Source: an uncultured Gemmatimonadota bacterium (GTDB taxonomy: Bacteria > GCA-2686955 > CAYMWF01). Taken from it: a stretch of 64,000 bases of DNA. The DNA is taken from NCBI GenBank assembly GCA_964394085.1, contig CAYMWF010000002.1, positions 48,051-112,050 of the forward strand, given 5' to 3'. The translations under genes were made by a program, and so were the position numbers. How positions within the stretch are numbered: the first letter of the stretch is position 1; the number at the start of each line of letters is the position of its first letter. Of the stretch, positions 6,990-44,232 are shown piece after piece. Under the pieces are notes generated by a model, which was not told the origin of the DNA, made no database searches, and saw only the letters and a list, made by a program, of their open reading frames with translations.

Positions 6990-8588
6990 TTACTCGATAT
7001 AACCCAGCCCTTTTAACTGTCGATGGATTATCTCCGAGTCTTCGTTACTGTACTCTTCAGTAAAACGCCCATATCCCTTTGCGGTTTCTGTCCGGTCTAC
7101 TCTCGCAGCATTGTAGGAATCAGTAAATGCTTCTTTTATGGGTGTTCCATCCATATCATCAGGTGTAGGAATATCAAAATGTCTGAGAATAGTAGGGGCA
7201 ATATCCATAATACTCGCATCATCGATGCAGACGCCGGTTTTAACAGCTGAAGATGGTCCATGTATTACAAGAACGCCATCCTCCCTGTGGAGAGCAGGGG
7301 TCAAGGTCTCGGGTTTTTCAAGCAGTGGCCCTTTATCTATTTGCCCAAGTGTATGATATGCGTGCCCATCCGTCTTATATTGAATATCGGGTGCACAACC
7401 GATCTGGTCGCCGGAAAATATTTCTTGAGCGGTCCACGCATCGCTGATAACTCTTCGCCCTGAATCCGGATCTGTGATCTGCAGCAATCTATCAATAACT
7501 TCCCGCTTAAGAGATTCCTCTTGCTCTCCAGGCTCAACTATACCCTTCGGCTCACGTCCCCTTAGATTAAGCATAATTATTTCCTCTCCCCCCGCCCATG
7601 CCGGATAAGCCACCGAAGCAGACCAATCAATCGATTCCCAGGGTTCCGGTTGTCGCAATCCGATGAATCGCTTCCGGCGTCGTAGTTCAATTCTATTCAG
7701 AATCGGTTGAATTCGGAAGGAAGGTGCAATCCGCAAATATCCCTTCCGGATTAACCAGCGCCCCACGAAAAAGTTCTTTTTTATCGGACCGAACCCGTGA
7801 TCGGAGATAACTATCGTCACGGTTTCCTCTGGAAGGCCTTCCAATAACCGTCCAAGGATTCTGTCGGTTGCTGTGTAGGCTTCTTCGATGAGTCCCTCGA
7901 ACATCGCAGTTTCACGCGGGTGGTTTGAACGATACTCTTCATCTCGGAACCGCCAGGCCACATGCTGCACCCTGTCCGTAATTGTAAATACTGCAGCGAA
8001 GACATCCCATTCCCTTGATAGCATCAGGTATTCTACTGCTCTTGCCCGCTGACTCTGCTCTGCAAAGAGCTGCTCCAGAAGACGAAGACGATCCGGCGAG
8101 GAAGCACCGCCAGGTTCAGAATGATCCAGAGGGTATGTACCAAGATTGGAGAGTAGCTCCATATGGAGGGATGAAGGCCAGGTAAACAGGTGTTCTTTTG
8201 ACGGGGTCAGCATCCCGGCGACCAGGATTCCGTTGACTTTTTCCGGTGGGTAAGTCATCGGCATATTAACGACTCCGACACGCCGAGCGTGACGAGAAAG
8301 AATCGACCAGATTGTCTCTGATTTAATGGCGGTAGCATTGACGTATCTTCTGCGATACGACTCAGGTAATTGCTGAAGAAAATAATAGACTCCGTGTTTT
8401 CCGGGGTTTTTCCCCGTCATTAACGAAGCCCATGCTACTGAAGAATTCGGCGGGATAGTTGACACCAGGTTAGCGCGAACGCCGTTCTGCAAAAGCCGTT
8501 TAATAGTCGGTAATTTATCCTGATCAATGAGCGGATCAATAATATCGAAAGTAGCCCCGTCTATACCGAATAGAAAAATCCGTTCCAT
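6990..8588 (-). CDS. Alkaline-phosphatase-superfamily protein (type I phosphodiesterase family), paralog 2
   Basis: MERIFLFGIDGATFDIIDPL...STIPPNSSVAWASLMTGKNPGKHG. Same architecture and same C-terminal ...KGLGYIE as 4671-6281. Confidence 0.6.
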   Translation of the reverse strand: MERIFLFGIDGATFDIIDPLIDQDKLPTIKRLLQNGVRANLVSTIPPNSSVAWASLMTGKNPGKHGVYYFLQQLPESYRRRYVNATAIKSETIWSILSRHARRVGVVNMPMTYPPEKVNGILVAGMLTPSKEHLFTWPSSLHMELLSNLGTYPLDHSEPGGASSPDRLRLLEQLFAEQSQRARAVEYLMLSREWDVFAAVFTITDRVQHVAWRFRDEEYRSNHPRETAMFEGLIEEAYTATDRILGRLLEGLPEETVTIVISDHGFGPIKKNFFVGRWLIRKGYLRIAPSFRIQPILNRIELRRRKRFIGLRQPEPWESIDWSASVAYPAWAGGEEIIMLNLRGREPKGIVEPGEQEESLKREVIDRLLQITDPDSGRRVISDAWTAQEIFSGDQIGCAPDIQYKTDGHAYHTLGQIDKGPLLEKPETLTPALHREDGVLVIHGPSSAVKTGVCIDDASIMDIAPTILRHFDIPTPDDMDGTPIKEAFTDSYNAARVDRTETAKGYGRFTEEYSNEDSEIIHRQLKGLGYIE

Positions 8589-8771
8589 CTAATCGCATTT
8601 CCGGGTAGTTACCCGATTTTCACAGTTTCTGAATCATTTTCGGCATTGTCGGATTCAGGTCGCTCCTCCGGGCAGGGAGAATATATTATCCTGTATCTTT
8701 GGATGCCGTCATTTTTTTCGGGTTCCCTGCAGATAGCGAGGATGGACTTTGGGCTTTACGAGTGTTTGGGA

Positions 8772-9656
8772 TCAAGCATCCCTGCTTAGAAGATACTTGG
8801 CCAGCAGTCGGAGTTTTTCCGCCCTGCTTCCAAACCGTTCAAGGTGATCGATCGATTCTTTATAAAGTCTTGAAGCAGTTTCCCTCGCCGAGGAAATATC
8901 AACAAAATTCACAAGTGACACCCGGTTACGATCCTTGTTCCCCTCTTTCCCAGTCCTGCTTGCTACACCTTCTACATCCAGGATATCATCAATAATCTGG
9001 TAAGCCAGTCCGAGTTTTTCTGTAAACCCGGTAACAGCCTCGATAGCTCCCCTGTCACCATCACCAACCATGACCCCAAGTTGAGCTGATGCTGAGAATA
9101 AACGACCGGTCTTCCTGTCATGGATCGACTGCAGCATATCAAATGTTAAATCAGCGGCGGAGGTTTGCAGGTCATCAATCTGTCCTCCAACAAGACCTTT
9201 CGATCCTACCGTACGGGAGATCAAACTCACCATTCTGGCTACAGTTGTTTCCGGAAGATCCTTGTTCAGCGCATACTCACCAATGATTTCATAAGCGCGA
9301 ACCAGCAAAGCAATACTGGACAAAACGGCAATATCTTCGCTGAAGGCCAGATGTGTGGTCTCTACACCCCTCCTTAAACCCGAGTTATCCATGGCCGGCA
9401 GATCGTCCAGGATGAGAGAACTGGAATGAATCAGCTCAACAGCTGCACCGACATCAATCACCTCCGAAATTTTCACGTCAAATATTTCCGCACAGAGAAT
9501 TGTCACTGCAGGTCTGATTCTCTTGCCGCCACTAAGGACCGCATACCTCATCGCTTCGTGAATGGGCTCGGGATGAACATTAGCAGGAACTAGCACGACT
9601 TCCAGATGTCGATTAATTGCCTTTTGAAGAGAGGGCAGGAAGGTAGGAGGTTTCAT
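8772..9656 (-). CDS. Polyprenyl diphosphate synthase (GGPP/FPP synthase family)
   Basis: First Asp-rich motif LILDDLPAMDNSGLRRG and second motif YQIIDDILD. Confidence 0.8.
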   Translation of the reverse strand: MKPPTFLPSLQKAINRHLEVVLVPANVHPEPIHEAMRYAVLSGGKRIRPAVTILCAEIFDVKISEVIDVGAAVELIHSSSLILDDLPAMDNSGLRRGVETTHLAFSEDIAVLSSIALLVRAYEIIGEYALNKDLPETTVARMVSLISRTVGSKGLVGGQIDDLQTSAADLTFDMLQSIHDRKTGRLFSASAQLGVMVGDGDRGAIEAVTGFTEKLGLAYQIIDDILDVEGVASRTGKEGNKDRNRVSLVNFVDISSARETASRLYKESIDHLERFGSRAEKLRLLAKYLLSRDA

Positions 9657-10004
9657 AAAGTAACAAATTCCTATCTGGTTGCTTGATAACGTTTCAAGAT
9701 GGTAATCGGTTAATCAGCCGGGTTTTCCAGAAGAACCTATTTCAGGCTGCTGTCTAATATATTTGTTTTACCTTTTATGAAGGTTACGGAGCATCAGCGT
9801 TGAGATTTCTGTGAACCCCGAATACTGGGTTTCATTAAAGACTCAATCTAATATGGTTACCCGGCTTTGTCAAGATGGCGCATCAGCTAACAACGGTCGT
9901 GCGTTTTCGGTGTCTTTTGGGTTTCCTTCTTCAGGAGATTCAATCCCGAGGGCAGATCGTGAAATTTAGAGGTTCTTCGGATCTGGAACCAGTAAGCTCC
10001 GTCA

Positions 10005-10913
10005 TTACTGAATAATATAGGCCAGGGCAAATAACACCTGTGCAATAATCAACATAAAATACATGCTCCACCAAGAGGGATGATTTCCATCTCCAGCTAA
10101 TCCGGAAGGGTTCTTAAGAAGAATTAAAGCTGTTATACATCCCCAGAAACTGAGAAAAAACCCCGAAAATGTGAGGATTAGCTTATTCCCTGTGAGAAGT
10201 GGCTCAGCAGGCAGTAGGACAATAATAGGCACCAGGACAAACGGGAAAACTAAAAAGGGGGTGATAACCAGGACGCTGCGCCTGATGCCAAGTACTGCAG
10301 GTATGGTCCTGCAGCCAAATCGACGATCTCCCTCGATATCTGCGATATCTTTTGTAGAAGCAGCACCCAGGACAAAAAGACCGAGCACAATCCCCAACAG
10401 CCATGGTTCCGGATCCATAAATGGGAGAACACCTTGCCATCCGTCAGCGAGTTCGAACCTTGCTGATGCCCAGCCTGCAACCAGAAGCAGGCATCCACGT
10501 GGTAAGGCTATTGCAAAATTTGAAACTATAAAGAGTCTTTTCAGCCTTAACGGCGGCATTGAATATGCAGCGGTGATCAACGCGGTGACAATTACAATTG
10601 CGAAGAAGTAAACATTCACTACCGCTGCCAACAGGATGCTGGCAAGATACAAAATAACCGAAAATACTATAGCTTTGGAAATAGAAATCTTTCCGGCAGG
10701 AATCGGTCGATCAGGTTTATTGATCAGGTCGATTTGCCTATCGAATACTTGGTTGATTACATTTGATGCCGCATTAAGAAGTGATGCAGCCAAAGTGCCG
10801 AGGAAAGAAACCGCTGGAGGAATTCCGCCAGCACCGATAGCCGCTCCTGCCAGGAAACCGACAAGCGGTGCTATAAGTGTAAAGGGTCTTGTGAGTTGAA
10901 TGTACTCCTTCAC
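10005..10913 (-). CDS. UbiA-family aromatic/polyprenyl prenyltransferase, DGGGPS/ChlG-like subfamily
   Basis: NQVFDRQIDLINKPDRPIPAGKIS (NxxxDxxxD...INxPxRPIPxG) and a second Asp motif KDIADIEGDRRFG. Nine-TM style hydrophobicity. It overlaps the upstream membrane-protein gene by 4 nt. Confidence 0.7.
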   Translation of the reverse strand: MKEYIQLTRPFTLIAPLVGFLAGAAIGAGGIPPAVSFLGTLAASLLNAASNVINQVFDRQIDLINKPDRPIPAGKISISKAIVFSVILYLASILLAAVVNVYFFAIVIVTALITAAYSMPPLRLKRLFIVSNFAIALPRGCLLLVAGWASARFELADGWQGVLPFMDPEPWLLGIVLGLFVLGAASTKDIADIEGDRRFGCRTIPAVLGIRRSVLVITPFLVFPFVLVPIIVLLPAEPLLTGNKLILTFSGFFLSFWGCITALILLKNPSGLAGDGNHPSWWSMYFMLIIAQVLFALAYIIQ

Positions 10914-12370
10914 GGAAATGCCATCCTGATCACGATTCCAAGGATTATGATTCCTAGTGTTTCGACAAGTGTTTCCCTGGTTGCCGGAAGAGGTGCGATG
11001 ATATTAAAGTATCTCATTGCAAGCCTTAGGAACAAAATCGAAGATGGAATCAATATGAATTCACTGAATCCGGAGATTAAGCCGAGGATGGCAGCAACGG
11101 TTGTAATCACGAGAGCCCCGGCTAATGAACCCCCTTGTTCCTCCAATACGATTATACCTTGGTCGGATCCGACAGCCTGGGAGTCGACAATCTTCAAATC
11201 AGATAACGAGAAATTTGAATGACCTAGGAATCCGGCGACAAGATCTCCCGATATCCTGCTGGCACCAACGGCAATGGCAAGTACCGATGCAAACTGAAAT
11301 AGGACACGCCCGGCGGGAAGGGTGGTGTTTTGATTGTCAATTCCTGCGGCAAGAGCAAGAAAGGCGCAAATTACAGCGACTACACTGGATGTCCGCAGAT
11401 TGTTCTCCATTTTTTTGCTATCATAAAACCTGTATCTACCTGGAACATTTTCCTTTATATCTTCGTCATTCTCCGAACGAGATATAGCAGCCTTCGGATC
11501 CAGTCGGTATTTCTCCTGTCTCTTAATCGAGAAAATCGATACTATACTGAAAGATAGAAACAGGACGAACAACCTCCAAGACCCGAAATATCCAGCACAT
11601 CCCGAACAGACCACCCAAAACGATATACTTTTCCCGGCCAACCGCCACTTGTGACCAAGTGGCCACCATAGAGCAGTCGAAAACATGAACCATCCGATCC
11701 AGGTCTTCCCTTTTTCGTAAAGGTTTTCAGCAAGAACTGAATATTCCATAAGATAGAGAGCATAGAGGAAAAGTCCTATCAATAGAGGGCGGATATAATC
11801 TTCTTCGATCCTGACATTTTCGCGACAACTCGCATAAGTATATGCAATAGCTGCAGGTACGACAACCAAGAGATGCTCAGCCGAAGGGATGCTTCCCCTT
11901 GAAATCCAATAAGCGGCAATAACCGATGAGGTTGCACCGAGGGTAAAATGGAACCCCATCATAAGGCGGCTGAAGTTTGCTTCATCCAATTGGAGTGTGT
12001 TTGTTTTTTCCGCAAGCAGGCGAACCAACAATGCTCCACCATCCGCAACTGCAAGCATACACCAGACGGCACCTGCCACATGCAGCATCCCCCCAAGTTT
12101 TCCGAATAACGCGATACTGAACAGAACCGTCATCGGATAAGAAACCAGACTACGGAATCTTGGACCATCAGAAGAAACTCCGGGTATGGCGGGAACTACA
12201 ATTAGTACAAATAAAGTAAGTGATGTCGCAATGACAATAGCCATGTATAAACTGGTCCAGCGAAGAAACAAAACAGGCAGAACTGTAGCAATACGAATCA
12301 ATGCGAGATAGATGTCGCCGTCCATTTTGAGACTGTCTGCTGGTCTTATAGTTTCCGGGCTTCTCTTCAT
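10910..12370 (-). CDS. Large polytopic membrane protein (two membrane domains separated by a charged linker), unknown function
   Basis: 486 aa. Translationally coupled to the UbiA-family gene (4-nt overlap). The start codon is uncertain. Confidence 0.4.
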   Translation of the reverse strand: MKRSPETIRPADSLKMDGDIYLALIRIATVLPVLFLRWTSLYMAIVIATSLTLFVLIVVPAIPGVSSDGPRFRSLVSYPMTVLFSIALFGKLGGMLHVAGAVWCMLAVADGGALLVRLLAEKTNTLQLDEANFSRLMMGFHFTLGATSSVIAAYWISRGSIPSAEHLLVVVPAAIAYTYASCRENVRIEEDYIRPLLIGLFLYALYLMEYSVLAENLYEKGKTWIGWFMFSTALWWPLGHKWRLAGKSISFWVVCSGCAGYFGSWRLFVLFLSFSIVSIFSIKRQEKYRLDPKAAISRSENDEDIKENVPGRYRFYDSKKMENNLRTSSVVAVICAFLALAAGIDNQNTTLPAGRVLFQFASVLAIAVGASRISGDLVAGFLGHSNFSLSDLKIVDSQAVGSDQGIIVLEEQGGSLAGALVITTVAAILGLISGFSEFILIPSSILFLRLAMRYFNIIAPLPATRETLVETLGIIILGIVIRMAFP

Positions 12371-20491: not shown

Positions 20492-21070
20492 ATGAAGATA
20501 TCTACGATTGTACTGGCCGGTGCACTCCTCATCATCACAACAATCTTATCCGGATGTTACACTTCCTTCACCCACCCCGGATCGACAGGAAGGTATTCCG
20601 ATTATTCGAATGAGCCTGGAGTGAACCGGGATGCATCGTGCATTTCATGCCATGTGCACCGCCATCCCACTTCCCTTTTCTGGCATGACTACTGTTATCA
20701 CACCGCTTACCCTTGGTACAGAACCTTTTACGGCTATCCCTGGTGGTGGTGGTGGTATGATGAAGAAAATGGCGATGAAGACCCACCCCCCTCGCTACCG
20801 TCTATCAGCGGAACCTCGGACCGTGAACCGTTCGACTGGGAAAAAAAAGAACCTCCGGGTCAAACAGGATTGGATTCAGCAAAACAAGGTCAAGAAACCC
20901 CTATACACCTGAAACGGCCAGCAAAGTATAAATCGAAAAAACACAAAATCGACAACTTACCCGACAAGAATCCGACAAAGGTAAAAACACATCGTCCGAT
21001 CCGCCAACCAGAAACCGATGACGAGGGGGATTCGGATAAAAAATTCCGGACTCAGCAAGAAAGCGATTGA
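20492..21070 (+). CDS. Small lipoprotein with a CxxCH motif, a Trp-rich patch and a Lys-rich disordered tail
   Basis: Lipobox ILSGC. CISCHVHRH is CxxCH. YPWWWWWYDEE is followed by a K/P/D-rich C-terminal half. Confidence 0.5.
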   Translation: MKISTIVLAGALLIITTILSGCYTSFTHPGSTGRYSDYSNEPGVNRDASCISCHVHRHPTSLFWHDYCYHTAYPWYRTFYGYPWWWWWYDEENGDEDPPPSLPSISGTSDREPFDWEKKEPPGQTGLDSAKQGQETPIHLKRPAKYKSKKHKIDNLPDKNPTKVKTHRPIRQPETDDEGDSDKKFRTQQESD

Positions 21071-21183: not shown

Positions 21184-22461
21184 ATGCAGATGATCCGTTT
21201 TTCTTTGATTCTTGTTTTACTGTTATCGAGTCTGTTTTCAATGTCGGAATGCACAGCCGGCAGTACGAATGTAAGAACCGACGAGTTCTCATTTATATAT
21301 CCGCTCTTTCCTAACGCTCGATCCGCAGGATCAGCAGGTGCTTTGGCTGTAGTTCAGGATGATCTGTACAGCTTCAAAACAAATCCCGCATCTGCCGCTC
21401 TCTTGACCAGACCCGAGCTCTCCGGTTCTCTTCTACATAGAGCCTGGAGAAACACTACATCTTTTTATGGATCGGAAACTCTCGTAGATGACAGCAGATC
21501 TGCAATGACCTCAATCGGGATCGGATATCCATTCCCTGTTTATCGCGGCAGTTTCGTCATAGGCGGCGGATTTTTCGCACGAAATCTTTTCACAAGAGAC
21601 CTGCTGTATGCGGGTATAGATGAAGCCGATGATTATGAACCGCGAATTCAGGAATCGATCCTCGAAGACGGGAAGTTGGGAACGTACACCTTAGGGTTCG
21701 GCACCGCAGTCTCACCTGCCGTTACCGTAGGAGCATCGGTGCACTTCTGGAGGGGCGATTTTTCTGAGGATTATTGGCAAAAAAATGTTCCAAACTCCCC
21801 AGTCGGTGGCATCGATTCGCTCCGAATCGATCATTATCTCGATGCAAATTTCGATGGTATGAATATGACAATAGGAGCCTGTCTCTCCGGTCGAAGCGGC
21901 TTTAGAGCGGGGATCGCCCTGGACACACCGTTCACTCTGAAGAGATCCGGATATTTCTGGGCCGATACTACATGGTATTCCGCTGATTCACTTTGTATAA
22001 CCGAAATGGAGTATTTAACTGAAGCCCAGTTTCAAATACCTTTTATTATAAGATTCGGCCTCGCGATCCCTATAAAACAACTTACGCTTGCGACTTCCTT
22101 TGAATTTTCGGATCTTTCTTCGATGGACTGGAGCGGTCGGAGCGAAGACAGCTTTGGTGACCCAAGAACCGGTCTCTATGACGAACTCTTCATTGCTGCA
22201 GCGGGAGTAGAATATGCTGCCAAGAGGATTCCGCTCTTTCTTAGAAGCGGTTGCAGGTGGGAATCGAGTGTCTTTTCACCGTATGACGGGGGAAGAGGGC
22301 GGTTCGGTTACTTTTTCGGTACCGGAGTGGTGCTGCAATCCATCGTCTCTCTCGATCTGGCATTAGGAAGTATGGAATCGGACCTCACGCAGTCCGACGC
22401 CCGGTTCTCAAATAAGAAGTGGAATTATCAGCTTCATCTTACAACTTCAATCAGGTTCTGA
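21184..22461 (+). CDS. Outer membrane beta-barrel protein (FadL/porin-like), unknown substrate
   Basis: Signal peptide, alternating amphipathic beta-strand pattern, and a C-terminal ...HLTTSIRF with terminal Phe. Confidence 0.5.
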   Translation: MQMIRFSLILVLLLSSLFSMSECTAGSTNVRTDEFSFIYPLFPNARSAGSAGALAVVQDDLYSFKTNPASAALLTRPELSGSLLHRAWRNTTSFYGSETLVDDSRSAMTSIGIGYPFPVYRGSFVIGGGFFARNLFTRDLLYAGIDEADDYEPRIQESILEDGKLGTYTLGFGTAVSPAVTVGASVHFWRGDFSEDYWQKNVPNSPVGGIDSLRIDHYLDANFDGMNMTIGACLSGRSGFRAGIALDTPFTLKRSGYFWADTTWYSADSLCITEMEYLTEAQFQIPFIIRFGLAIPIKQLTLATSFEFSDLSSMDWSGRSEDSFGDPRTGLYDELFIAAAGVEYAAKRIPLFLRSGCRWESSVFSPYDGGRGRFGYFFGTGVVLQSIVSLDLALGSMESDLTQSDARFSNKKWNYQLHLTTSIRF

Positions 22462-33883: not shown

Positions 33884-34098
33884 TTTCAACCTCCGTGCCG
33901 GGGATGTTCTGATTGATCCGATTCCCGATCCGGTTGGCCGGTCTATGGTGCAAACGGAGAGAATCTTCTGAAACGAAATCAATTGGTATCATAGCGGGAA
34001 AAGTTGCGTCAACCGTTTTGCATGACACAACGCTTGGATTTTACTTCCATCCTGATACAACTTATGTTATCGAATATGAGGTTACAGAAAGGCTGGTC

Positions 34099-34344
34099 AT
34101 GCTCGTTCTCGGGAGAAGAAAGAATCAATCGATCGTAATCGGCGACGAAATTGAAGTTCTGATCGTAGAGATCGACGGTGAAAATGTTAAAGTCGGCGTA
34201 CAGGCGCCGAGGCATATCCAGATATATCGAAAAGAACTCCTAAAGGAAATAGAGCTGGCCAATATTAAAGCCGCCGTCACGAAAAAACCGGAGTTTCCTC
34301 TGCGTAATCTGAAAAATCTCAATAATTCCCCAAAAGATTCGTGA
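34099..34344 (+). CDS. csrA: Carbon storage regulator CsrA (81 aa, extended C-terminus)
   Basis: Internal ATG at 34099 of the track ORF with a GAAAGG RBS. MLVLGRRKNQSIVIGDEIEVLIVEIDGENVKVGVQAPRHIQIYRKELLKEI compares with E. coli [48 protein letters not shown]. Confidence 0.8.
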   Translation: MLVLGRRKNQSIVIGDEIEVLIVEIDGENVKVGVQAPRHIQIYRKELLKEIELANIKAAVTKKPEFPLRNLKNLNNSPKDS

Positions 34345-34503
34345 ACCGGACGAATTCCGCATACCCTTCTATTCTTTAAATAAGATACAATATGGATTAT
34401 TAATCCGCATGTCCGGATATTCACCCCAGTTTCTCAAGTAAAAATAATTCAGTGCCGATAGTACGATAGTAAGCATGGGCCTTGGTTTTTCCGGAGGTAT
34501 ATC

Positions 34504-36204
34504 TTGAGCAAAAAGAAAAATAAAAAGAAGAATCGTTCCCGACCAAGAAGGGATGCCCAGCCCCTGCTTTCGCTATGTATGATAGTAAAAAATGAGGAAA
34601 AAAACCTGGAAAGATGCCTTTCTTCCGCTGCTCCATTCTTCGACCAGATTGTAGTTGTAGATACTGGATCGACCGATCGAACAGTCGATATAGCCGAAAA
34701 ATATGGCGCGGAAGTTCATTTTTTCGAGTGGATCGATGATTTTTCCGCTGCCCGCAACGTTTCGCTCGAGCACGCACACGGGAAATTTATCGTCTGGCTC
34801 GATGCTGATGATTATCTTCCGGAAGAAAGCGGTAAGCTGATAAGGCAAGCTGCCGTTTCGGGGAAACGTGTTGCATATTTCCTGCTTCTAAAGAATATAA
34901 AATCGGACCTCTCCTGTACGAAAATGTACCAGATGCGCATGTTCCCAAATACACCGGGCGTCAGGTTCGAACACCCGATCCATGAGCAAGTTACTTTCTC
35001 GCTAAAGGAATTGAATATCCCTTTCGACAGCATCGATGCTGAAATTCACCACTGGGGCTACCACGACGATGAAGCGATGCATGGGAAGCACAGCCGTGCT
35101 CTTGAAATTCTGGAAAGTCAATTAAGAAAAGAACCGGAAAACTTTTCATACAATTACTATTACGGTCTCTCTTCCCTCGGGACAAAAAGTTACGAAAACG
35201 CTATTACCGGATTTGATAGGGTGGCAGCCTCGCCAGAAGCTCTAAAAAAGAGACCGGATATGTACTTCCATGCCAGGATACTCAAGGGAAAGGCGCTGGA
35301 AGATACCGGTAATATAGATGGTGCTGAAAAGGTGTATCGCGAGATTCTAAAGGAAGCACCGCAGTATTTTCTTGCTCTTTATACACTCGGAGAGATTCTT
35401 TACAACTCGGGGCGAACAAACGAAGCGAAGGAAAACTTCGAAGGCGTTATCAACCGGGAAATTCCCATACCTATTATATCGATCCCGGTTGATTCCGTGC
35501 GTTTCGTATCATATTACCGGCTGGCAACGATTGCAGGGAACGACGAGAATTACGACGAGGCAATACAGTTATTGCAAAGAGCAAGCAGTATATATCCGGA
35601 GGAACCGAAACCGTTAATTTCCCTAGCAAATATCTTCAGAAAAATCGGAAGAGTAAGAGACGCTGTCAGCGAGTATGAGCGGTTGATCCGTCTGGAACCC
35701 GATTCACCCGCCTGGCCACTGGAAATCGGCAACTGCATGATGGTATCAAAAAAAATGGCTGAAGCTGCGGAAGCTTACAGGGACGTCGCAGACAAGTTTC
35801 CTGAATATTTCCCTGCCTCGGCCAACCTCGCTAAAACATTGTATTCGATGAAACGTTTCGACGAAGCTCTGCCATACGCGGAAAATGCGAACAGATTGAA
35901 TCCCGAAGATTCATTCATTCACAAACTTCTCGGCGATTTATATTCGAATTCGGGTCGTTTCGCAGATTCGGTAAAGTATTATGAAGTTTATCTGACAAAG
36001 AATCCTGCCGACTACGCGGTATTCACGCGGCTCGCCTTCAATTATCTGGAGCAGAAAGCCATCCGAAGCGCTCTCCTCGGGTTCCGCCAGGCTCTCGCGC
36101 TCAACCCATCTTATCCACCCGCGCAATACGGGCTATCTACTATAAACAAACAGCATGGCGATCTTGTTGAAGCGATGGCTGAATCCTCATCGACAGGCAA
36201 ATGA
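34504..36204 (+). CDS. GT2 glycosyltransferase fused to C-terminal TPR repeats (GmaR-like; candidate flagellin O-glycosyltransferase)
   Basis: TTG start with a GGAGG RBS. SLCMIVKNEEKNLERCL...VVVDTGSTDRT...WLDADD is a GT-A fold. Residues 230-560 are TPR-like repeats. It lies between csrA and flagellin 1. Confidence 0.7.
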   Translation: MSKKKNKKKNRSRPRRDAQPLLSLCMIVKNEEKNLERCLSSAAPFFDQIVVVDTGSTDRTVDIAEKYGAEVHFFEWIDDFSAARNVSLEHAHGKFIVWLDADDYLPEESGKLIRQAAVSGKRVAYFLLLKNIKSDLSCTKMYQMRMFPNTPGVRFEHPIHEQVTFSLKELNIPFDSIDAEIHHWGYHDDEAMHGKHSRALEILESQLRKEPENFSYNYYYGLSSLGTKSYENAITGFDRVAASPEALKKRPDMYFHARILKGKALEDTGNIDGAEKVYREILKEAPQYFLALYTLGEILYNSGRTNEAKENFEGVINREIPIPIISIPVDSVRFVSYYRLATIAGNDENYDEAIQLLQRASSIYPEEPKPLISLANIFRKIGRVRDAVSEYERLIRLEPDSPAWPLEIGNCMMVSKKMAEAAEAYRDVADKFPEYFPASANLAKTLYSMKRFDEALPYAENANRLNPEDSFIHKLLGDLYSNSGRFADSVKYYEVYLTKNPADYAVFTRLAFNYLEQKAIRSALLGFRQALALNPSYPPAQYGLSTINKQHGDLVEAMAESSSTGK

Positions 36205-36340
36205 CGGGCCCTCCCGCTCCTGACGAATCCAATCAACCCAGTCTAACATCCATCAACACCTAGATACCGCCCTTCAATCATGAATTCAAACTCCAACATT
36301 GTGCCATGTAAAAGGTTGCGCCCTTTTTGTAAACTTTATT

Positions 36341-36368
36341 TAAAGAATTGCGTCGAGCTCTCCGATAT
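36341..36368 (+). promoter_or_regulatory. Putative sigma-28 (FliA/SigD)-type promoter upstream of flagellin 1
   Basis: TAAAG-N17-CCGATAT versus the consensus TAAA-N15-GCCGATAT. The roughly 120-nt leader is rich in GGA motifs, including the SD AAGGAGGAUGGA. Confidence 0.35.
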
Positions 36369-36491
36369 GGATTGAGAAGTTGGACGACTGCAAGGAAAAA
36401 ATGCAGATAAAGGGGGTGAAGAACCAATAGTTTTTGATAGGGCAAGGACGCCCGAAGCGACTTACACGCAACCCATCAAGGAGGATGGACG

Positions 36492-38210
36492 ATGTCACTG
36501 AAAATAATGCATAACATCTCGTCGATTAACGCGTACGGGAACCTTCTGAAAACGGAATCCCGTCTATCGACGAACCTCCAGAGGTTATCCTCTGGTTTGA
36601 GAATCAACAGCGCCGCCGACGATCCGGCGGGTCTGTCGATCTCACAGCGTTTCCGCGCACAGATCGCAGGTCTCGGCCAGGCGGTTGAAAATGCGGAAAA
36701 CGCGATTTCCATGGTTCAGACGGCAGAGGGTGCCCTGAACGAGGTTCACAATCTTCTGACGACAATGAGAGAGCTGGCGGTTCATGCTGCCAATGAAGGC
36801 TTGAATGACTCAGTTATGCTCGCTGCGGATCAGCAGCAGATCGAATCGGCTCTCGAGTCGATCGACCGGATCGCCGATACGACCCAATTCGGCACCAAGG
36901 TGCTGCTCAACGGAGCCAACGACAATCTCGTGGCGATAACCACGAACAGCTCCGATATCGAAGCATTCGGCGCAAGCGAGCTTTCAGCCGGCTACCATTA
37001 TATTACCGTAGACAGCGTGGTGGATGCGGACCAGTGGATCAACAATCAGGATCTTGGGTTGATGGATCCGGCCAGTGTGTCCGGACTTGCAGCAGGAGAT
37101 CACGTAATCACCGTAATTCAAGAATCGGACAGCGCTGAGTACTACAGTGATGACATCACGGGTTCGGTTCAGATTATAGCCGGTAACAACGATGATTTCA
37201 TCGTACAGCTCGACGGCGGTTCGGCCATGACCGTGACCATCGCCACCGGTACCTACGCAACCGTCGCGGCTCTTGCAGCGGCTGTTGAAACCGCGGTAGA
37301 CACCGCTCTCGCAGCCGGCGGTTACTCGACAAGCGAAATAACCGTTTCCGCCAGCGATAACAAACTGCTATTCACCTCCGCCGATCATGGATCGGAAAGC
37401 TCGATCTTAATCGGCGATTCCGGGGTGACAACCACTTCAGCCTTAGAAGATCTTATGCTGGGCTCGGGAGTGGAGGTCGGTCAGGATGCGATAGTGACCC
37501 TTGACAACTTCGAAAACCGCCTTTCTGTGGTAGACAATGCTACTGACTCTTCCGCGACCCTCTATGACTCGGACGGCAACTCGGTCTGGTTCAGCATTGG
37601 GGACACTTCGGAAGGAATCGATCTCGGCACTACAATCCTCACCGTTCAGGCCAAACAGTTCCTGGCCAGTATCGATGGAGGTCCGAAATCCCGATTCTCC
37701 GCAGACGTTCAGGGCACCATCCAGAACGGTTCGGACAAGCTGGAGGTCACCTTCGGCTCCGATGTGACAGCGGGAACTTCCAATGTAAAAGTTTCGGATA
37801 ACTCGCTTCTGTTCCAGATCGGGGGTAATGAAGATCAAACGGTTTCACTTTCGCTTGCCAGTATGGCATCTTCCCAGCTGGGGCAGATAAACAACAAGCT
37901 TTCGACTATCGATGTGACAAGCACATCCGGAGCGAATACGGCGATAATGATTATCGATGCCGCCACATCCCAGGTCTCGACCGAACGTTCCAAGCTTGGA
38001 GCTTTCCAGATCAACGTTCTAGAAAGCACGCTGAATTCTCTGAGGGTATCCGAAGAGAACCTCCAGGCAGCGGAAGCGACTTTGAGGGATACGGACTTCG
38101 CGGTGGAGATGGCGGAATTCACCAAGAACCAGATCCTGCAGCAGTCAGGTATCGCGATTCTCGCGCAGGCGAATGCGAACCCACAGGTAGTGCTCTCCCT
38201 CATCGGGTAG
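36492..38210 (+). CDS. fliC: Flagellin (572 aa, large variable central domain)
   Basis: AAGGAGGA RBS. Conserved N-terminus LQRLSSGLRINSAADDPAGLSISQRF and C-terminus QNQILQQSGIAILAQANANPQVVLSLIG. Confidence 0.9.
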   Translation: MSLKIMHNISSINAYGNLLKTESRLSTNLQRLSSGLRINSAADDPAGLSISQRFRAQIAGLGQAVENAENAISMVQTAEGALNEVHNLLTTMRELAVHAANEGLNDSVMLAADQQQIESALESIDRIADTTQFGTKVLLNGANDNLVAITTNSSDIEAFGASELSAGYHYITVDSVVDADQWINNQDLGLMDPASVSGLAAGDHVITVIQESDSAEYYSDDITGSVQIIAGNNDDFIVQLDGGSAMTVTIATGTYATVAALAAAVETAVDTALAAGGYSTSEITVSASDNKLLFTSADHGSESSILIGDSGVTTTSALEDLMLGSGVEVGQDAIVTLDNFENRLSVVDNATDSSATLYDSDGNSVWFSIGDTSEGIDLGTTILTVQAKQFLASIDGGPKSRFSADVQGTIQNGSDKLEVTFGSDVTAGTSNVKVSDNSLLFQIGGNEDQTVSLSLASMASSQLGQINNKLSTIDVTSTSGANTAIMIIDAATSQVSTERSKLGAFQINVLESTLNSLRVSEENLQAAEATLRDTDFAVEMAEFTKNQILQQSGIAILAQANANPQVVLSLIG

Positions 38211-38285: not shown

Positions 38286-38669
38286 ATGATTACAGGCGGA
38301 AAAATACCAGACTCAACTGCAGGCGCAGCCGCCTTGCCGGCAGTCGAGTGGACGCATCCGAAAAGGGCGAAAGCTCCTCCGGTGCAAAAACCGACCACCG
38401 ACAAGCCTGTAGTCGAGAATGAAGCAAAACAAAAAAACCTGATCGATAAGGCGGAGAATCTACAATTATCGGATCAAGTGAAAAGGTATCTCGGGGCAGT
38501 CGGAAGAAAACTCAGTTTCTCACTTCACGAACCAACGGGTCAGATGATTGTAAGGATCATCAACCGTGAAACCGATGAAGTAATCAGGGAAATACCGATG
38601 GAGGAATTTCTCGAAATCGAAGCGCAAATCAAAGAGTCGATTAAGAATTTCCTCGATGTGCTCGCGTGA
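38286..38669 (+). CDS. flaG: Flagellar protein FlaG
   Basis: The C-terminal half MIVRIINRETDEVIREIPMEEFLEIEAQIKE matches the FlaG family core. Position is between flagellin and fliS. Confidence 0.6.
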   Translation: MITGGKIPDSTAGAAALPAVEWTHPKRAKAPPVQKPTTDKPVVENEAKQKNLIDKAENLQLSDQVKRYLGAVGRKLSFSLHEPTGQMIVRIINRETDEVIREIPMEEFLEIEAQIKESIKNFLDVLA

Positions 38670-38683
38670 TACAGGAGTATGAC

Positions 38684-39127
38684 ATGTCGCCCCAGAATGG
38701 TTACGGCGTCTACAAGTTGACCAAAGTAAATACAGCGTCCAGAAATGACCTGGTGCTGATGCTCTTCGATGGTCTGCTCGTTTTCCTGGAAAATGTTTTG
38801 GACGCCTTAACCGATGGGGACGCCGCCGGGGTGGAGGAATACTGCACCAGGAGCAGAAGAATCCTGGTTGAGCTTCTTTCTTCGCTCCATCCTGAATCAG
38901 GAGGTGAAATAGCGAACAACCTTCAGACCCTTTATCTCTTCTGCCTTCGTCAGTTGATAGAGGTGTCGCTCAAGAAAGATCACCAGCAGGTGAAAGATGT
39001 AATCTCTATAATTTCCCAATTAAGGGATGGCTGGATCGGGATGGAGGAATCGGATGATCAAGAAGAGGAATCGCTCGAACCAGTCGAATCACCTGCATTA
39101 GCCGATATAGTTGAAGCTGTAGGATAA
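38684..39127 (+). CDS. fliS: Flagellar export chaperone FliS
   Basis: DLVLMLFDGLLVFLENV matches the FliS LVxMLYDGAIxxL motif. ATG at 38684 has an AGGAG RBS; the track ORF begins with GTG at 38666, overlapping the flaG stop. Confidence 0.75.
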   Translation: MSPQNGYGVYKLTKVNTASRNDLVLMLFDGLLVFLENVLDALTDGDAAGVEEYCTRSRRILVELLSSLHPESGGEIANNLQTLYLFCLRQLIEVSLKKDHQQVKDVISIISQLRDGWIGMEESDDQEEESLEPVESPALADIVEAVG

Positions 39128-39199: not shown

Positions 39200-39508
39200 G
39201 TGGGTATCAACGAAATTGCCGGGTTTCCCCCGGCGGGAAAATCGGAAAAGCCCGGCCGAATAGAGGATGGCGCAAAACCGGACACCGGTAAAAAATGCGC
39301 TGCCGGCGGCAGCATCGAGGCCGCGGCTGATTCATCCTTCGAGGGGCGCAAACAGGTTGAGGAGCTTTTGTCCAAGCTCCCTGATCAGGACATGGTGCGC
39401 CAGGAGAAGGTTGAAGAAATCCGTGAAAAAATCAGGGATGGTTTTTATGACGATCCGACTATCGTTGAGAGAGTCGCCGAATTTCTGACTTCCATTCTTG
39501 GACGATAG
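39200..39508 (+). CDS. flgM: Anti-sigma-28 factor FlgM-like (GTG start)
   Basis: The C-terminus VRQEKVEEIREKIRDGFYDDPTIVERVAEFL resembles the FlgM sigma-28-binding helices. AGGAG RBS 7 nt upstream of GTG. Confidence 0.6.
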   Translation: MGINEIAGFPPAGKSEKPGRIEDGAKPDTGKKCAAGGSIEAAADSSFEGRKQVEELLSKLPDQDMVRQEKVEEIREKIRDGFYDDPTIVERVAEFLTSILGR

Positions 39509-39699
39509 GCAAGTTTTTCCCTCCGCCTGCAGGGTTGCAGGTATTATTTTCCTTTCACACCACCCCTCCCATCGCCCCATCTTGCTGTATAATAACGACT
39601 TAGGAACTTGCCGCAAATGGTACGCCCCTTGCAAAACTATCTCCACAACTCGGTGTTTCTTAAAAGGAAACTCAAAACCGAACGGCAGGAGTGTGCGAA

Positions 39700-41415
39700 A
39701 TGGCGGTAACTATCAGGCAGAACCTTGCAGCAAGGTTCACATTAAAACATTTGGCGGATACCCAGCGGAAACTGGCGACATCCTTCGAGCGTCTTTCTTC
39801 CGGATATAAGATAAACAGAGCGTCAGATGATGCTGCGGGACTTGCACTCTCACAGAGAATCCGCGGGAGGATTTCAGGACTCAATCAGGCAGCTGACAAT
39901 TCCGAACTAGGAATCTCCATGCTTCGGGCGGCGGAATCCTCGCTGGCCGAAATTAATGCAATCCTGTTGCGAATGAGAGAGCTTGCGCTCCATGCCATGA
40001 ATGCCGGACCGAATGATGAATCGATGCTGGCCGCCGATCAGGCAGAAATATCCGCCTGCCTGGAAGGGATCGACAGGATAACGGCTGAAACCAGATTCGG
40101 TGACAAGCATCTGCTGGACGGAAGCAAGGCAAATATCATTTCAGTCAAAGAAAATGTGTCCGGCATCGTCGGCTCGACGAACAGCACGCTCTCAGAAGGA
40201 ACTCACGAGATCGATGTTTCGAACTGGATTGCTGCAAACCAGAGCATCAACAATCTCGATCTTGGATTGTCACAACCGATATTCCCGCATGGGCTTGCTG
40301 CCGGAGACCACACCATTTCAGTAATCCAGGAATCAGATTCAACGTATTTCGAGAGTGGCGTTCTTTACTTTGATGAACCCCTCGTTCTTACGGACGGAAT
40401 CAATGATCGATTCTATTTCTCTCTGGACGCCGCAGATCCTGTTACCGTGGATCTGGTCGCCGGAGGAGCAGTCACTTTCTCAGATCTGGATTCGCTGGCA
40501 ACGGTTGTGGAAGCGGCGGTGAAATCAGCTCTCGGGGGCGACCCGGATGATGAAATCCGTGTGACGGCGACGGAAGAGGGTGCTCTCCAATTTAAAACAA
40601 CGGATCACGGCACTGAGAGTTCTATCACGATTTCCGACTCCGACCTAGACGATTCAGCCTTAGCGGATCTGCATCTGGATTCGGGGACCGAATATGGGAA
40701 AAATGCGATAATAACACTGGATAATTTCGAAAATATCGTCAGCAACGTCGACAATCTTACTCCTTCTGAGATCGAGCTCAGGGACAAAGATAATAACGAT
40801 ATCACCTTCCAGATAGGAGACAGCTCAACCGGCATCAAGGCCGGTACTGCGGTGCTTACTATCAATCCTGAACGATTTCTTGTCAGTTTAGATGGTGGAC
40901 CGAAATTCGAATTCGAATCAGGAGAATGGAGTACTGTGTCGAACGGAAGTGAATCGATTCGACTGCTGTTCGGGGAATATGTTGCTGAAGGAACCAACAC
41001 TCTCGATGCGAGTGAAAACGCTCTCACTTTCAATATCAATGGCGAAACGGATTTTGCATTCGAGGGTGTAAGCCCTGCCCATCTCGGCCTCAGAGAAGGC
41101 AGGCTTTCAACCATCGATCTTTCTACGGCTGAAGGTGCAGCGAGTGCGCTGGAAGCCATTGACGAAGCTAACACCCTGGTTTCATCGGAACGAGCCAGGA
41201 TGGGCGCTTTTCAAAAAAATGTGCTCGAAGTGACCTTGAATCAGCTGCTTGTCGAAATTGAAAACCTGACAGCGGCGGAATCGGTTATTCGGGATGCCGA
41301 TTTTGCATTCGAGATTGCGGAGATGACTAAGCTGCAGATCATGCAGGAGGCCGGCACGGCTGTTCTCGCACAGGCGAATATCTCGCCGCAGACAGTGCTC
41401 AGGCTCCTTTCATAA
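39700..41415 (+). CDS. fliC: Flagellin paralog 2 (about 571 aa)
   Basis: AGGAG RBS before ATG at 39700. N-terminus LSSGYKINRASDDAAGLALSQRIRG and C-terminus LQIMQEAGTAVLAQANISPQTVLRLLS. Confidence 0.9.
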   Translation: MAVTIRQNLAARFTLKHLADTQRKLATSFERLSSGYKINRASDDAAGLALSQRIRGRISGLNQAADNSELGISMLRAAESSLAEINAILLRMRELALHAMNAGPNDESMLAADQAEISACLEGIDRITAETRFGDKHLLDGSKANIISVKENVSGIVGSTNSTLSEGTHEIDVSNWIAANQSINNLDLGLSQPIFPHGLAAGDHTISVIQESDSTYFESGVLYFDEPLVLTDGINDRFYFSLDAADPVTVDLVAGGAVTFSDLDSLATVVEAAVKSALGGDPDDEIRVTATEEGALQFKTTDHGTESSITISDSDLDDSALADLHLDSGTEYGKNAIITLDNFENIVSNVDNLTPSEIELRDKDNNDITFQIGDSSTGIKAGTAVLTINPERFLVSLDGGPKFEFESGEWSTVSNGSESIRLLFGEYVAEGTNTLDASENALTFNINGETDFAFEGVSPAHLGLREGRLSTIDLSTAEGAASALEAIDEANTLVSSERARMGAFQKNVLEVTLNQLLVEIENLTAAESVIRDADFAFEIAEMTKLQIMQEAGTAVLAQANISPQTVLRLLS

Positions 41416-41436: not shown

Positions 41437-43791
41437 ATGTGCGCACTGATGAACATCGGAGGTATCATTTCAGGGTTCGATTCGCTCAGCCTTATTGATG
41501 CCACCATCGAGATCGGACGGGCACCGATCTACCGCATGCAGGAACGACAAACCGAGATCACTGATCAGATCTCGGCGTGGCAATCCCTGAATACAAAAAT
41601 GCTCGCATTCAAAATTTCCTGCGACAGCCTCAAATCCTCTTCCTCCTGGGACGTGTTCTCCTGCACCTCTTCAGACGATGATATCCTGACCGCAGATGCG
41701 GATTCTTCAGCACCCGCGGGTCTCTATACTTTTACAGTAAACGAGCTTGCAGCCAATCATCAAATCGCATCGAATGGGTTCGCCGACTCGGATGAAACGA
41801 CAATCGGCACCGGAACATTCACGCTTGAATACGGAGAGAACCTCTCCACCGAAATCGATATTGATGAAACCAACAATACTCTGGAAGGGCTTCGCGACGC
41901 CATCAACGATACGAGTCTCAATGTCACGGCTTCAATTATTAATACCGGCAGCGGCGACACTCCCTACCAGCTGATGATTTCCAGCGATGAAACGGGCACC
42001 GAAAACCTTCTCGATTACGAAATCGATTTGGAAGGCGGCACATCTCTCTACTTTACACAGATAGGTACGGTCAACGCAGCCAGTGCATGGTTGCCCGACC
42101 CTCCTTCGTCCACCTCGAGTGTCACTTCCGGAGGTTCCTATATAGGAACAGAGGATAAAACATATACCATTACCGCCACGTCGGGCGGGACGGTCGGGAC
42201 GGACGCAATAACCCTGAGCTGGGATGATGGAACCGGCAATACCGGCACGATTACCATACCTGCGGATTACGACACGGGAGATCCCGACGAAATCACGGTT
42301 GGAGACGAAGGCCTCACCTTGACATTCGGTGCGGGCGACATCGTCGTCGATGAAAACTTCACCGTTGCCGTGGAAACCGGCGGCTTGAACACGATTCAGG
42401 AAGGCTCTGACGCAGAGATTGTTTTCGGCGGTTCCGGAGTTGGCGACAACCCGATAACGATTACGAGTTCTTCGAACACCGTAACGGATTTGATCGAGGG
42501 AGTGACCATCAATCTGCAGTCAGCAGACTCGGACAGTCCTGTTACACTTACCATAGGCCGGGACACCGAACAACTGGTAACCAACATAGAGACGATGGTA
42601 TCGAATTACAACGAGGTCATGAGCTACCTCAATGCTCAAATGTCCTACGATGAATATTATGAAACCGGTGGTGTTCTCATGGGGGACCTCACCCTTCTGA
42701 CGATACAAAATGACATGCGAAACACCATAGGTCAGAAACTTACGGGGCAAGCGGACGGATACCAGCTGCTCTCTGAAATAGGAATCACATCAACGAATAC
42801 CGGTACACTCTCAGTAGACTCTTCCACGCTGAATGAGAAGATCGGATCCGACTTCGAAAGTTTCGCCGCCATGTTCAACGAGAGCGGAAGCGCTACTGAT
42901 AACAACATCAGGTTCCTTAGCGCGGGTGCAGATACGGTCGAATCAGGTGACGGTTATTTCATCAATATTACCCGGGCCGCATCCCAGGCTTCGACCACCG
43001 GTTCCTACTTTCAACTCGATGGAAGCAACCCGGTTACAATCAACGACACCAACAACAGGATCAAAATTAAAATCGACGGCGAGTCATCAGGGGTTGTTAC
43101 TCTCTCGAACGGAACTTATACGAGCGGGGAATCCCTGGCCGCAATGATAGAAGAACAAATAGATAACAGCGGGTTGGATGACAGTGGGTTTTCCGTAGAA
43201 TGGGAAGTTGATCCAGGGGATTCTTCCCGAGGAGGCATTGAGATCAAATCGGCCAGCTATGGAAGTACATCCACCGTTGAAATAGTCAGCACTGCTTCAT
43301 CGATATACAGTGATATCGGACTGACTGCCGGCGCTTCGGCAACAGGTCAAGACGTGGCAGGCACCATAAACGGCGAATCTGCCACGGGGACCGGTAAAAT
43401 TCTGACGGGCCTGTCGGGGAACGCCACGACTGATGGGTTGTCAATCGAAGTCAACCTGACCGCCGATCAACTCACACTACAGGGCGGTTCACAGGGAAGG
43501 GTTTCTTTCACCCGGGGAATCGCGTCAGATTTTTCTGCCGACATCGACAGATTTACCGATTCGTCGACCGGTATCATCGCTTCGAAAACAGGGGGGTTAG
43601 AGAGGCAGATTGAAGTCTTCGATGAACATATCGCTCGTATCGAAGACCAGCTTGAAATAAAGAGGGATCGCCTTATAGCAAAGTATACGGCAATGGAGGA
43701 AACGATTTCAATTTTGGAATCCCAGGGTCAGATCATGTCGATGCAGCTGCTCCAGCTCACAGGGAACTCCAGCAGCTCGGGATCTTCCTAG
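41437..43791 (+). CDS. fliD: Flagellar filament cap protein FliD (hook-associated protein 2)
   Basis: AGGAGG RBS. N-terminus GFDSLSLIDATIEI...QISAWQSLNTKM and a C-terminal coiled coil ...DRLIAKYTAMEETISILESQ. 784 aa. Confidence 0.8.
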   Translation: MCALMNIGGIISGFDSLSLIDATIEIGRAPIYRMQERQTEITDQISAWQSLNTKMLAFKISCDSLKSSSSWDVFSCTSSDDDILTADADSSAPAGLYTFTVNELAANHQIASNGFADSDETTIGTGTFTLEYGENLSTEIDIDETNNTLEGLRDAINDTSLNVTASIINTGSGDTPYQLMISSDETGTENLLDYEIDLEGGTSLYFTQIGTVNAASAWLPDPPSSTSSVTSGGSYIGTEDKTYTITATSGGTVGTDAITLSWDDGTGNTGTITIPADYDTGDPDEITVGDEGLTLTFGAGDIVVDENFTVAVETGGLNTIQEGSDAEIVFGGSGVGDNPITITSSSNTVTDLIEGVTINLQSADSDSPVTLTIGRDTEQLVTNIETMVSNYNEVMSYLNAQMSYDEYYETGGVLMGDLTLLTIQNDMRNTIGQKLTGQADGYQLLSEIGITSTNTGTLSVDSSTLNEKIGSDFESFAAMFNESGSATDNNIRFLSAGADTVESGDGYFINITRAASQASTTGSYFQLDGSNPVTINDTNNRIKIKIDGESSGVVTLSNGTYTSGESLAAMIEEQIDNSGLDDSGFSVEWEVDPGDSSRGGIEIKSASYGSTSTVEIVSTASSIYSDIGLTAGASATGQDVAGTINGESATGTGKILTGLSGNATTDGLSIEVNLTADQLTLQGGSQGRVSFTRGIASDFSADIDRFTDSSTGIIASKTGGLERQIEVFDEHIARIEDQLEIKRDRLIAKYTAMEETISILESQGQIMSMQLLQLTGNSSSSGSS

Positions 43792-43845: not shown

Positions 43846-44232
43846 ATGAAAGCACAGAACAACGAGGGCGAAAAGGTTCTCGAAACCTACAAGCAGATTT
43901 TCGAGAACACGAAAGCGCAGGCGGATGCGCTGGAAAACAATGAGGAAGGCACGGATGAATTTGTGAAACTTCTCGAAAAACGAGGTAATCTCTTATCATC
44001 CCTCCCGTTCAACCGTCTCGACAGGAAAAACATGCCACCTGAACAGGTGACGGAGATTATCGCTCTTATCAGGGAGATTCTTCGTTTGGATATTCAGAAC
44101 AATATCTCGCTGGGAAAGTATATGAACACTTTAAAGGACGATACGAGCAGCTTCAATAAAAGCATAGATATGCTCGGGAGGTTTAAGGCGTTTCGGTCCG
44201 AGCCGCCGCGGTATTTCGACAGAAGAGAATAG
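43846..44232 (+). CDS. Small helical protein in flagellar locus (possible FliT/FlgN-like export chaperone)
   Basis: AGGAGG RBS. 128 aa. The position after fliD mirrors fliT in Bacillus-type operons. No diagnostic motif was recognised. Confidence 0.3.
   Translation: MKAQNNEGEKVLETYKQIFENTKAQADALENNEEGTDEFVKLLEKRGNLLSSLPFNRLDRKNMPPEQVTEIIALIREILRLDIQNNISLGKYMNTLKDDTSSFNKSIDMLGRFKAFRSEPPRYFDRRE

Follow-up and report, generated by a model that had tools for sequence, protein, structure and literature searches.

A GT2-TPR fusion gene directly upstream of flagellin in an uncultivated bacterium encodes a candidate flagellin O-glycosyltransferase

Which protein is modified by a glycosyltransferase whose gene sits at the head of a flagellin locus? 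This question is raised by a 64,000-nucleotide stretch of DNA from an uncultured Gemmatimonadota bacterium (assembly GCA_964394085.1, contig CAYMWF010000002.1, positions 48,051 to 112,050; hereafter the window), which carries a gene encoding a glycosyltransferase (GT) domain of family 2 (GT2) fused to tetratricopeptide repeats (TPRs). An earlier sequence-only reading had proposed that the gene encodes a flagellin O-glycosyltransferase resembling GmaR of Listeria, and sequence, structure prediction and comparative genomics support that proposal to the extent that they can. Based on its sequence and modeled fold, we consider the product to be most likely a soluble cytoplasmic protein glycosyltransferase that is dedicated to the flagellar filament. 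The gene and its parts are as follows, with positions given in window coordinates.

34493 to 34497, + strand: Shine-Dalgarno sequence GGAGG for the GT gene, located 6 nt ahead of its start codon and kept in the relative L003
34504 to 36204, + strand: GT2-TPR gene (566 aa), candidate flagellin O-glycosyltransferase (open reading frame, Pfam and NCBIfam matches, identity with P0001, AlphaFold2 model)
34504 to 34554, + strand: Lys/Arg-rich N-terminal tail, aa 1-17 (MSKKKNKKKNRSRPRRD), predicted to be disordered (predicted local distance difference test, pLDDT, <50 for residues 1-16)
34558 to 35067, + strand: GT-A (GT2) catalytic domain, aa 19-188
34801 to 34809, + strand: DxD motif D100-A101-D102, predicted to bind metal and nucleotide-sugar (invariant column, aligned to DADE of GmaR)
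35068 to 36195, + strand: TPR solenoid, aa 189-564, ~21 helices, presumed acceptor (flagellin)-binding module

The open reading frame occupies exactly the interval that the sequence-only reading had assigned to it, and its division into an N-terminal GT2 domain and a TPR region was confirmed by profile search. Pfam family PF00535 (Glycos_transf_2) matches residues 23-148 with 75.6 bits against a cutoff of 23.3, and more than 15 TPR families match residues ~193-560. An AlphaFold2 model built from a 13-sequence alignment (mean pLDDT 91.5, predicted TM-score 0.82) features an alpha/beta GT-A fold at residues 22-183 followed by an unbroken array of ~21 helices at residues 189-564. The TPR array that had been put at about 330 aa is thus present, but its helical part extends to ~375 aa in the model. 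Profile score, DxD motif and GT-A fold all place the protein in glycosyltransferase family 2, and neither its sequence nor the model contains a signal peptide, hydrophobic signal or transmembrane segment.

The catalytic residues expected of such an enzyme are intact. D100-A-D102 is invariant in an 18-sequence alignment of GT modules and also in a second alignment (A1, A2), and the window protein keeps all 22 positions that are invariant among the 18 aligned modules of the sub-family (I27, D53, T54, G55, S56, D58, A64, W76, D79, F80, A83, N85, D100, A101, D102, F147, H160, E161, H183, G185, Y186 and K195). When the protein was searched against solved structures, residues 18-210 matched PDB chain 22ao, a 204-aa GT domain labeled "GmaR" (E=5.3e-27), with the DxD motif aligned to DADE. 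The glycocin S-glycosyltransferases SunS (~1e-22) and ThuS (3e-19) were also among the matches, and the C-terminal half matched OGT and consensus TPR proteins. The best structural matches of the model are SunS and ThuS, of which SunS is the closest solved fold, and the top NCBIfam match for a glycosyltransferase is the SunS family TIGR04195 (96.9 bits versus a cutoff of 350). Chain 22ao shares 100% identity with a GT2 protein of Bacillus pacificus (P0128, 185 aa), which indicates that 22ao and 22ap represent a truncated-type GmaR from the B. cereus group rather than the Listeria protein. The gmaR gene is truncated in most B. anthracis strains (PMC7793685).

The location of the gene points to flagellin as the acceptor. 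The csrA stop codon (34344) is separated from the GT-TPR start by 159 nt, and the end of the GT-TPR gene from the start of flagellin 1 (36492) by 287 nt, which agrees with the earlier placement downstream of csrA and about 290 nt upstream of flagellin 1. We found a single close relative, designated L003, with a GT-TPR protein that is 75% identical, a MutS that is 78% identical and an identical gene order: hutI-hutU, csrA, GT-TPR, flagellin, flaG, fliS, flgM, flagellin, fliD and fliT. Beyond L003, MutS identity falls to ~51%, with the best named matches in Calditrichaeota, KSB1 and Latescibacterota, which indicates that the window derives from a poorly sampled, uncultivated lineage resembling the Fibrobacterota-Chlorobiota-Bacteroidota (FCB) group. 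Several public metagenome assemblies encode a protein identical to the GT-TPR product (P0001), and the neighboring genes there are the same.

Flagellin linkage extends across the family. Scanning the GT-domain alignment over one genome per species returned 80 loci (best identity 48%), which were searched with the flagellar proteins of the window. Flagellin or other late flagellar genes lie within 10 kb in 30 of these loci (E<=1e-4). With the flagellin C-domain as the marker (E<=1e-8), 22 of the 80 are flagellin-linked, as are 14 of the 40 loci flanked by at least 5 kb on both sides; the flagellin gene is downstream, on the same strand and no more than 5 kb from the last GT module in 17 loci. 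Chance linkage would be 1-2% by our rough estimate, which assumes a few flagellin genes per few-Mb genome. Moreover, linkage is concentrated where similarity to the window GT-TPR product is highest (14 of the top 21 loci versus 8 of the remaining 59).

The family is also modular. Single GT-TPR proteins of 540-660 aa are encoded at four loci (L006, L008, L011 and L020), and other members have two or three tandem GT modules and reach 1360-1430 aa; among the matches listed, most of 120 database homologues have two. Three-module GT and TPR giants are positioned directly upstream of at least two flagellin genes in Latescibacterota and Gemmatimonadota (L004, at 7772-11917; L012; L013; L014). Counting all forms, one to three tandem modules with TPRs directly precede flagellin in Latescibacterota, Gemmatimonadota, Desulfobacterota and a contig labeled Cytophagia, and Planctomycetota and Paenibacillus have flagellin-linked copies that are arranged differently. 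Of this family, in which the number of GT modules might set glycan length, the window protein represents the minimal form.

The presumed substrates belong to a flagellar island that ends with a fliT-like gene and is listed here together with csrA:

34099 to 34344, + strand: csrA (81 aa; CsrA domain, 81-aa orthologue in L003)
36492 to 38210, + strand: flagellin 1 (572 aa), presumed substrate, no Cys (Flagellin_N, Flagellin_C, composition)
38286 to 38669, + strand: flaG (PF03646)
38666 to 39127, + strand: fliS, flagellin export chaperone (PF02561, TIGR00208; the public call in L001 starts at 38684)
39200 to 39508, + strand: flgM-like gene, anti-sigma-28 factor, a weak match (PF04316, 27.7 bits versus a cutoff of 25)
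39691 to 41415, + strand: flagellin 2, presumed second substrate, probable start at 39700 (47% identical to flagellin 1; L003 orthologue of 571 aa)
41437 to 43791, + strand: fliD, filament cap (784 aa; FliD_N, FliD_C)
43846 to 44232, + strand: fliT-like small open reading frame at the end of the island (the L003 positional equivalent has a weak FliT match)

Both flagellins contain a central domain of ~340 aa, which the sequence-only reading had described as long and Ser/Thr-rich. The length stands, but with Ser+Thr contents of 23.4% in flagellin 1 and 19.2% in flagellin 2 versus 13-17% in the conserved termini, the enrichment is moderate. Flagellin 1 is devoid of cysteine, and flagellin 2 has Cys2, which precedes the probable start, and Cys123 within the conserved N-terminal domain. 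FliD is unusually long, with a large central insertion rich in Ser, Thr, Gly and Asp, and may be a further target of glycosylation. Located between fliS and flagellin 2, the flgM-like gene scores below the NCBIfam cutoff, and its position is kept in L003. An open reading frame for csrA had been listed from 33913 (143 aa, TTG start); because the CsrA domain begins at its residue 63 and the orthologue has 81 aa, we regard that version as over-extended.

The open reading frames scanned in the ~20 kb to either side of the island are mostly housekeeping genes (mutS, mutL, miaA, miaB, engA, ftsK, lolA and accBC). Among them, we found neither a sugar-nucleotide pathway nor further GT genes, and nonulosonic-acid genes were likewise missing from the ~40 kb of flanks scanned. 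Two adjacent + strand open reading frames, 20492-21070 (192 aa) and 21184-22461 (425 aa), are located amid - strand housekeeping genes and gave no Pfam match at E<=1e-5.

Taken together, these observations are consistent with a model in which flagellin would be glycosylated in the cytoplasm before export. The C-terminal TPR solenoid may bind unfolded or chaperone-bound flagellin and would thereby offer Ser/Thr residues in flagellin's variable central region to the GT-A domain at the N terminus, where D100 and D102 are predicted to hold a divalent metal and the diphosphate of the donor. The GT-A domain would then attach to the hydroxyl group a sugar taken from a common UDP-sugar, possibly UDP-GlcNAc or a UDP-hexose, and the glycosylated flagellin would be exported by the flagellar type III system and polymerized under FliD. 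An O-linkage is favored because flagellin 1 lacks cysteine. With one GT module in the protein and no sugar-biosynthesis or other GT genes in the scanned flanks, a single sugar per site would be expected, as for GmaR.

The assignment of the GT-TPR start codon bears on the integrity of the GT-A fold. The open reading frame begins with TTG at 34504, and this start is supported by the aligned codon in L003, which is ATG, and by a conserved CCGGAGGTATA Shine-Dalgarno block that precedes the start in both genes. The public call for the L003 orthologue (P0002, L003 10001-11614, 537 aa) begins instead at an internal ATG corresponding to window residue 26, a start at which the first beta-strand of the fold would be lost. 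Judged from the sequence alignment, the true L003 start is the ATG aligned with the window TTG. Basic N-terminal tails like that of the window protein are present in L004, P0118, P0035 and P0055 and absent from other relatives. The G+C content of positions 34001-36000, which cover the GT-TPR region, is 0.445, compared with 0.538 for the hut genes, 0.527 for flagellin 1 and a window mean of ~0.47; because the value is close to that mean, it does not clearly indicate horizontal transfer.

Three candidate regulatory elements flank the gene:

34434 to 34461, + strand: sigma-28 (FliA)-like promoter candidate of the GT gene, TCAAGT-N14-GCCGATAG (motif match, conservation with L003)
36341 to 36368, + strand: sigma-28-like promoter candidate of flagellin 1, TAAA-N16-TCCGATAT (motif match, perfectly conserved in L003)
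36375 to 36491, + strand: flagellin 1 leader, three hairpins with GGA in the loop, the last overlapping the Shine-Dalgarno sequence; candidate CsrA sites (fold z=-1.6, ~100% conserved with L003)

Both promoter candidates resemble the FliA/sigma-28 consensus. The gap between csrA and the GT gene contains a single block that is conserved between the window and L003, CTCAAGT-N14-G(C/T)CGATAGTAC at 34433-34464, followed by the Shine-Dalgarno sequence. Between the GT stop codon and flagellin 1, the initial ~110 nt show no conservation with L003, and positions 36310-36491 are nearly 100% identical, although the proteins are only ~75-78% identical. Motif position and conservation suggest that the GT gene is driven by a sigma-28-type promoter of its own, from which it would be co-expressed with flagellin.

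Hairpins that expose GGA in the loop are the pattern of CsrA-controlled flagellin leaders, for which the B. subtilis hag leader served as our comparison. The csrA gene has no adjacent fliW, and no FliW-like sequence was found in the 64 kb of the window or in the 21.6 kb L003 locus. In the Latescibacterota locus L004, the order is flgK, flgL, a putative fliW-like open reading frame of 171 aa, csrA and GT-TPR. The adjacency of csrA and the GT gene, the lack of fliW in the window and the CsrA-type leader raise the idea that the TPR half moonlights as a flagellin-sensing partner that would relieve CsrA repression in place of FliW and couple flagellin translation to glycosylation capacity. We regard this idea, which is drawn by analogy with GmaR, as a long shot.

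Several points weigh against a dedicated flagellin glycosyltransferase as described above. Within 10 kb, 26 of the 40 well-flanked GT-module loci have no flagellin, which indicates that the GT module is not exclusive to flagellin. The Ser/Thr enrichment of the central domains is only moderate and typical for flagellin variable domains, and the donor sugar is not readable from sequence. The promoter assignments consist of motif matches and a two-sequence footprint; the generic motif occurs 5 times in the window versus 1.4 expected, a count reached in 2 of 100 shuffles and only weakly above chance, and the case for the promoters therefore comes from position and conservation rather than from the count. 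The organism is uncultivated, and the whole case is built from sequence, structure prediction and comparative genomics.

One alternative is a protein glycosyltransferase with a main acceptor other than flagellin, for instance the large FliD, a different flagellar or surface protein or a broader protein set, with the gene position reflecting co-regulation. TPR domains are generic protein binders, the 784-aa FliD carries its long Ser/Thr/Gly-rich insert, and because only 35% of the well-flanked loci are flagellin-linked, relatives must have other acceptors. However, the linked loci are those most similar to the window GT, the gene is nearly always immediately 5' of a flagellin gene rather than of fliD, and the characterized homologue GmaR acts on flagellin; we consider this alternative unlikely. 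Another possibility is that the protein is a bifunctional equivalent of GmaR, in which the helical C-terminal half sequesters a repressor of flagellar genes. The homologous GT domain and the order of GT before TPR would fit, as would the adjoining csrA without fliW beside it in the window and the flgM-like gene nearby. Yet the window protein resembles GmaR only in its GT domain and in the order of its domains, and the window open reading frames that were scanned contain no MogR domain, which suggests that the comparison with GmaR is valid for the enzyme half but not for the regulator half. Outside Listeria and the B. cereus group, no mogR gene is known. We give this bifunctional role very little weight.

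Two further alternatives place the enzyme outside flagellar biology. The prominence of SunS and ThuS among the structural matches, and of TIGR04195 in NCBIfam, would suit a glycocin-type peptide S/O-glycosyltransferase acting on a small secreted bacteriocin, but the TIGR04195 score is far under its cutoff, SunS-type enzymes are ~420 aa long whereas the TPR array here is much longer, and the flagellin linkage is conserved. Nor are genes for a glycocin precursor peptide, a C39-peptidase ABC transporter or a thiol-disulfide oxidoreductase found nearby, where the neighbors are flagellar or housekeeping genes, which makes this explanation extremely improbable. An ordinary GT2 of cell-envelope polysaccharide synthesis is suggested by weak matches to TuaG and other polysaccharide GT2 models and by homologues annotated generically as GT2 ('glycosyltransferase involved in cell wall biosynthesis'). 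In contrast, the protein has no membrane anchor and no polysaccharide-cluster neighbors, its closest characterized homologues all act on proteins or peptides, and the TPR fusion and conserved flagellin linkage count against such a role, which is thus very unlikely. A glycosyltransferase that acts on flagellin remains the reading that we favor.

If confirmed, this activity would carry GmaR-type flagellin glycosylation, which uses a GT2 enzyme and a UDP-sugar, beyond Firmicutes into an uncultivated diderm lineage resembling the FCB group; as a minimal system of one enzyme, it should be readily reconstituted. Judging from the survey pattern, flagellin glycosyltransferases of this kind form a widespread family on which little experimental work exists. 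Because the kind of enzyme is already recognized, no new principle is involved, and the value of the locus is in the phylogenetic reach of the family and in the occurrence of one to three GT modules before flagellin genes. For specialists in flagellar glycobiology, we expect the findings to hold moderate interest and no surprises.

Among known systems, GmaR of Listeria monocytogenes (Lmo0688) is a flagellin O-GlcNAc transferase and MogR anti-repressor with a GT domain followed by TPRs (PMC9638930). It O-GlcNAcylates flagellin, which its TPR domain has been proposed to recognize. The window protein resembles GmaR in its homologous N-terminal GT2 domain, the TPRs directly after it, its association with flagellar genes and its soluble, cytoplasmic character. 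It differs in lacking the C-terminal linker (a four-helix bundle) and the MogR-binding anti-repressor domain, in its length (566 aa versus 637 aa) and in its host, which is of a diderm FCB-like lineage rather than a Firmicute. The helical halves are alike only generically; with window residues 140-340 as the query, similarity to GmaR was not detected (E<=0.4) and SunS was still found. SunS and ThuS (PDB 7msn, 7msp and 7msk) differ from the window protein in their shorter architecture of ~420 aa, compared with a much longer canonical TPR array here, and the acceptor of SunS is a Cys of a small bacteriocin precursor encoded in a glycocin cluster, whereas flagellin 1 has no Cys.

Two other flagellin-modifying enzymes, FlmG and Maf-1, offer analogy rather than homology. 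In FlmG of Caulobacter, the TPR domain is necessary and sufficient for flagellin binding and its GT domain by itself shows no binding, and Maf-1 of Shewanella gains its acceptor specificity through a C-terminal TPR domain; in both, as would apply here, flagellin binding falls to a TPR module and the cytoplasmic glycosylation of Ser/Thr to a catalytic module. However, FlmG combines an N-terminal TPR domain with a C-terminal GT-B domain, an architecture that the window protein does not share, and the sugar that FlmG transfers is pseudaminic acid; Maf has an unrelated fold, and both depend on CMP-nonulosonic acid pathways. OGT and SPINDLY (GT41, eukaryotic and bacterial) have a structurally very similar TPR superhelix and share the concept of acceptor recruitment by TPRs, but their TPRs are N-terminal, in reverse order to the window protein, and their catalytic domain is GT-B rather than GT-A. 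The combination of GT2 and TPR has already been used to predict flagellin glycosyltransferases (FGTs) in the flagellar glycosylation islands of Clostridium (PMC13317340), and in C. difficile the first GlcNAc/HexNAc of flagellin is added by CD0240/GT1, whose gene neighbors fliC. Those loci usually contain more modification or sugar-biosynthesis genes, whereas the window GT stands alone and in a different phylum. The two features by which the Clostridium FGTs are recognized, a GT2 domain and TPRs within one protein and a position beside flagellin genes, are both present in the window.
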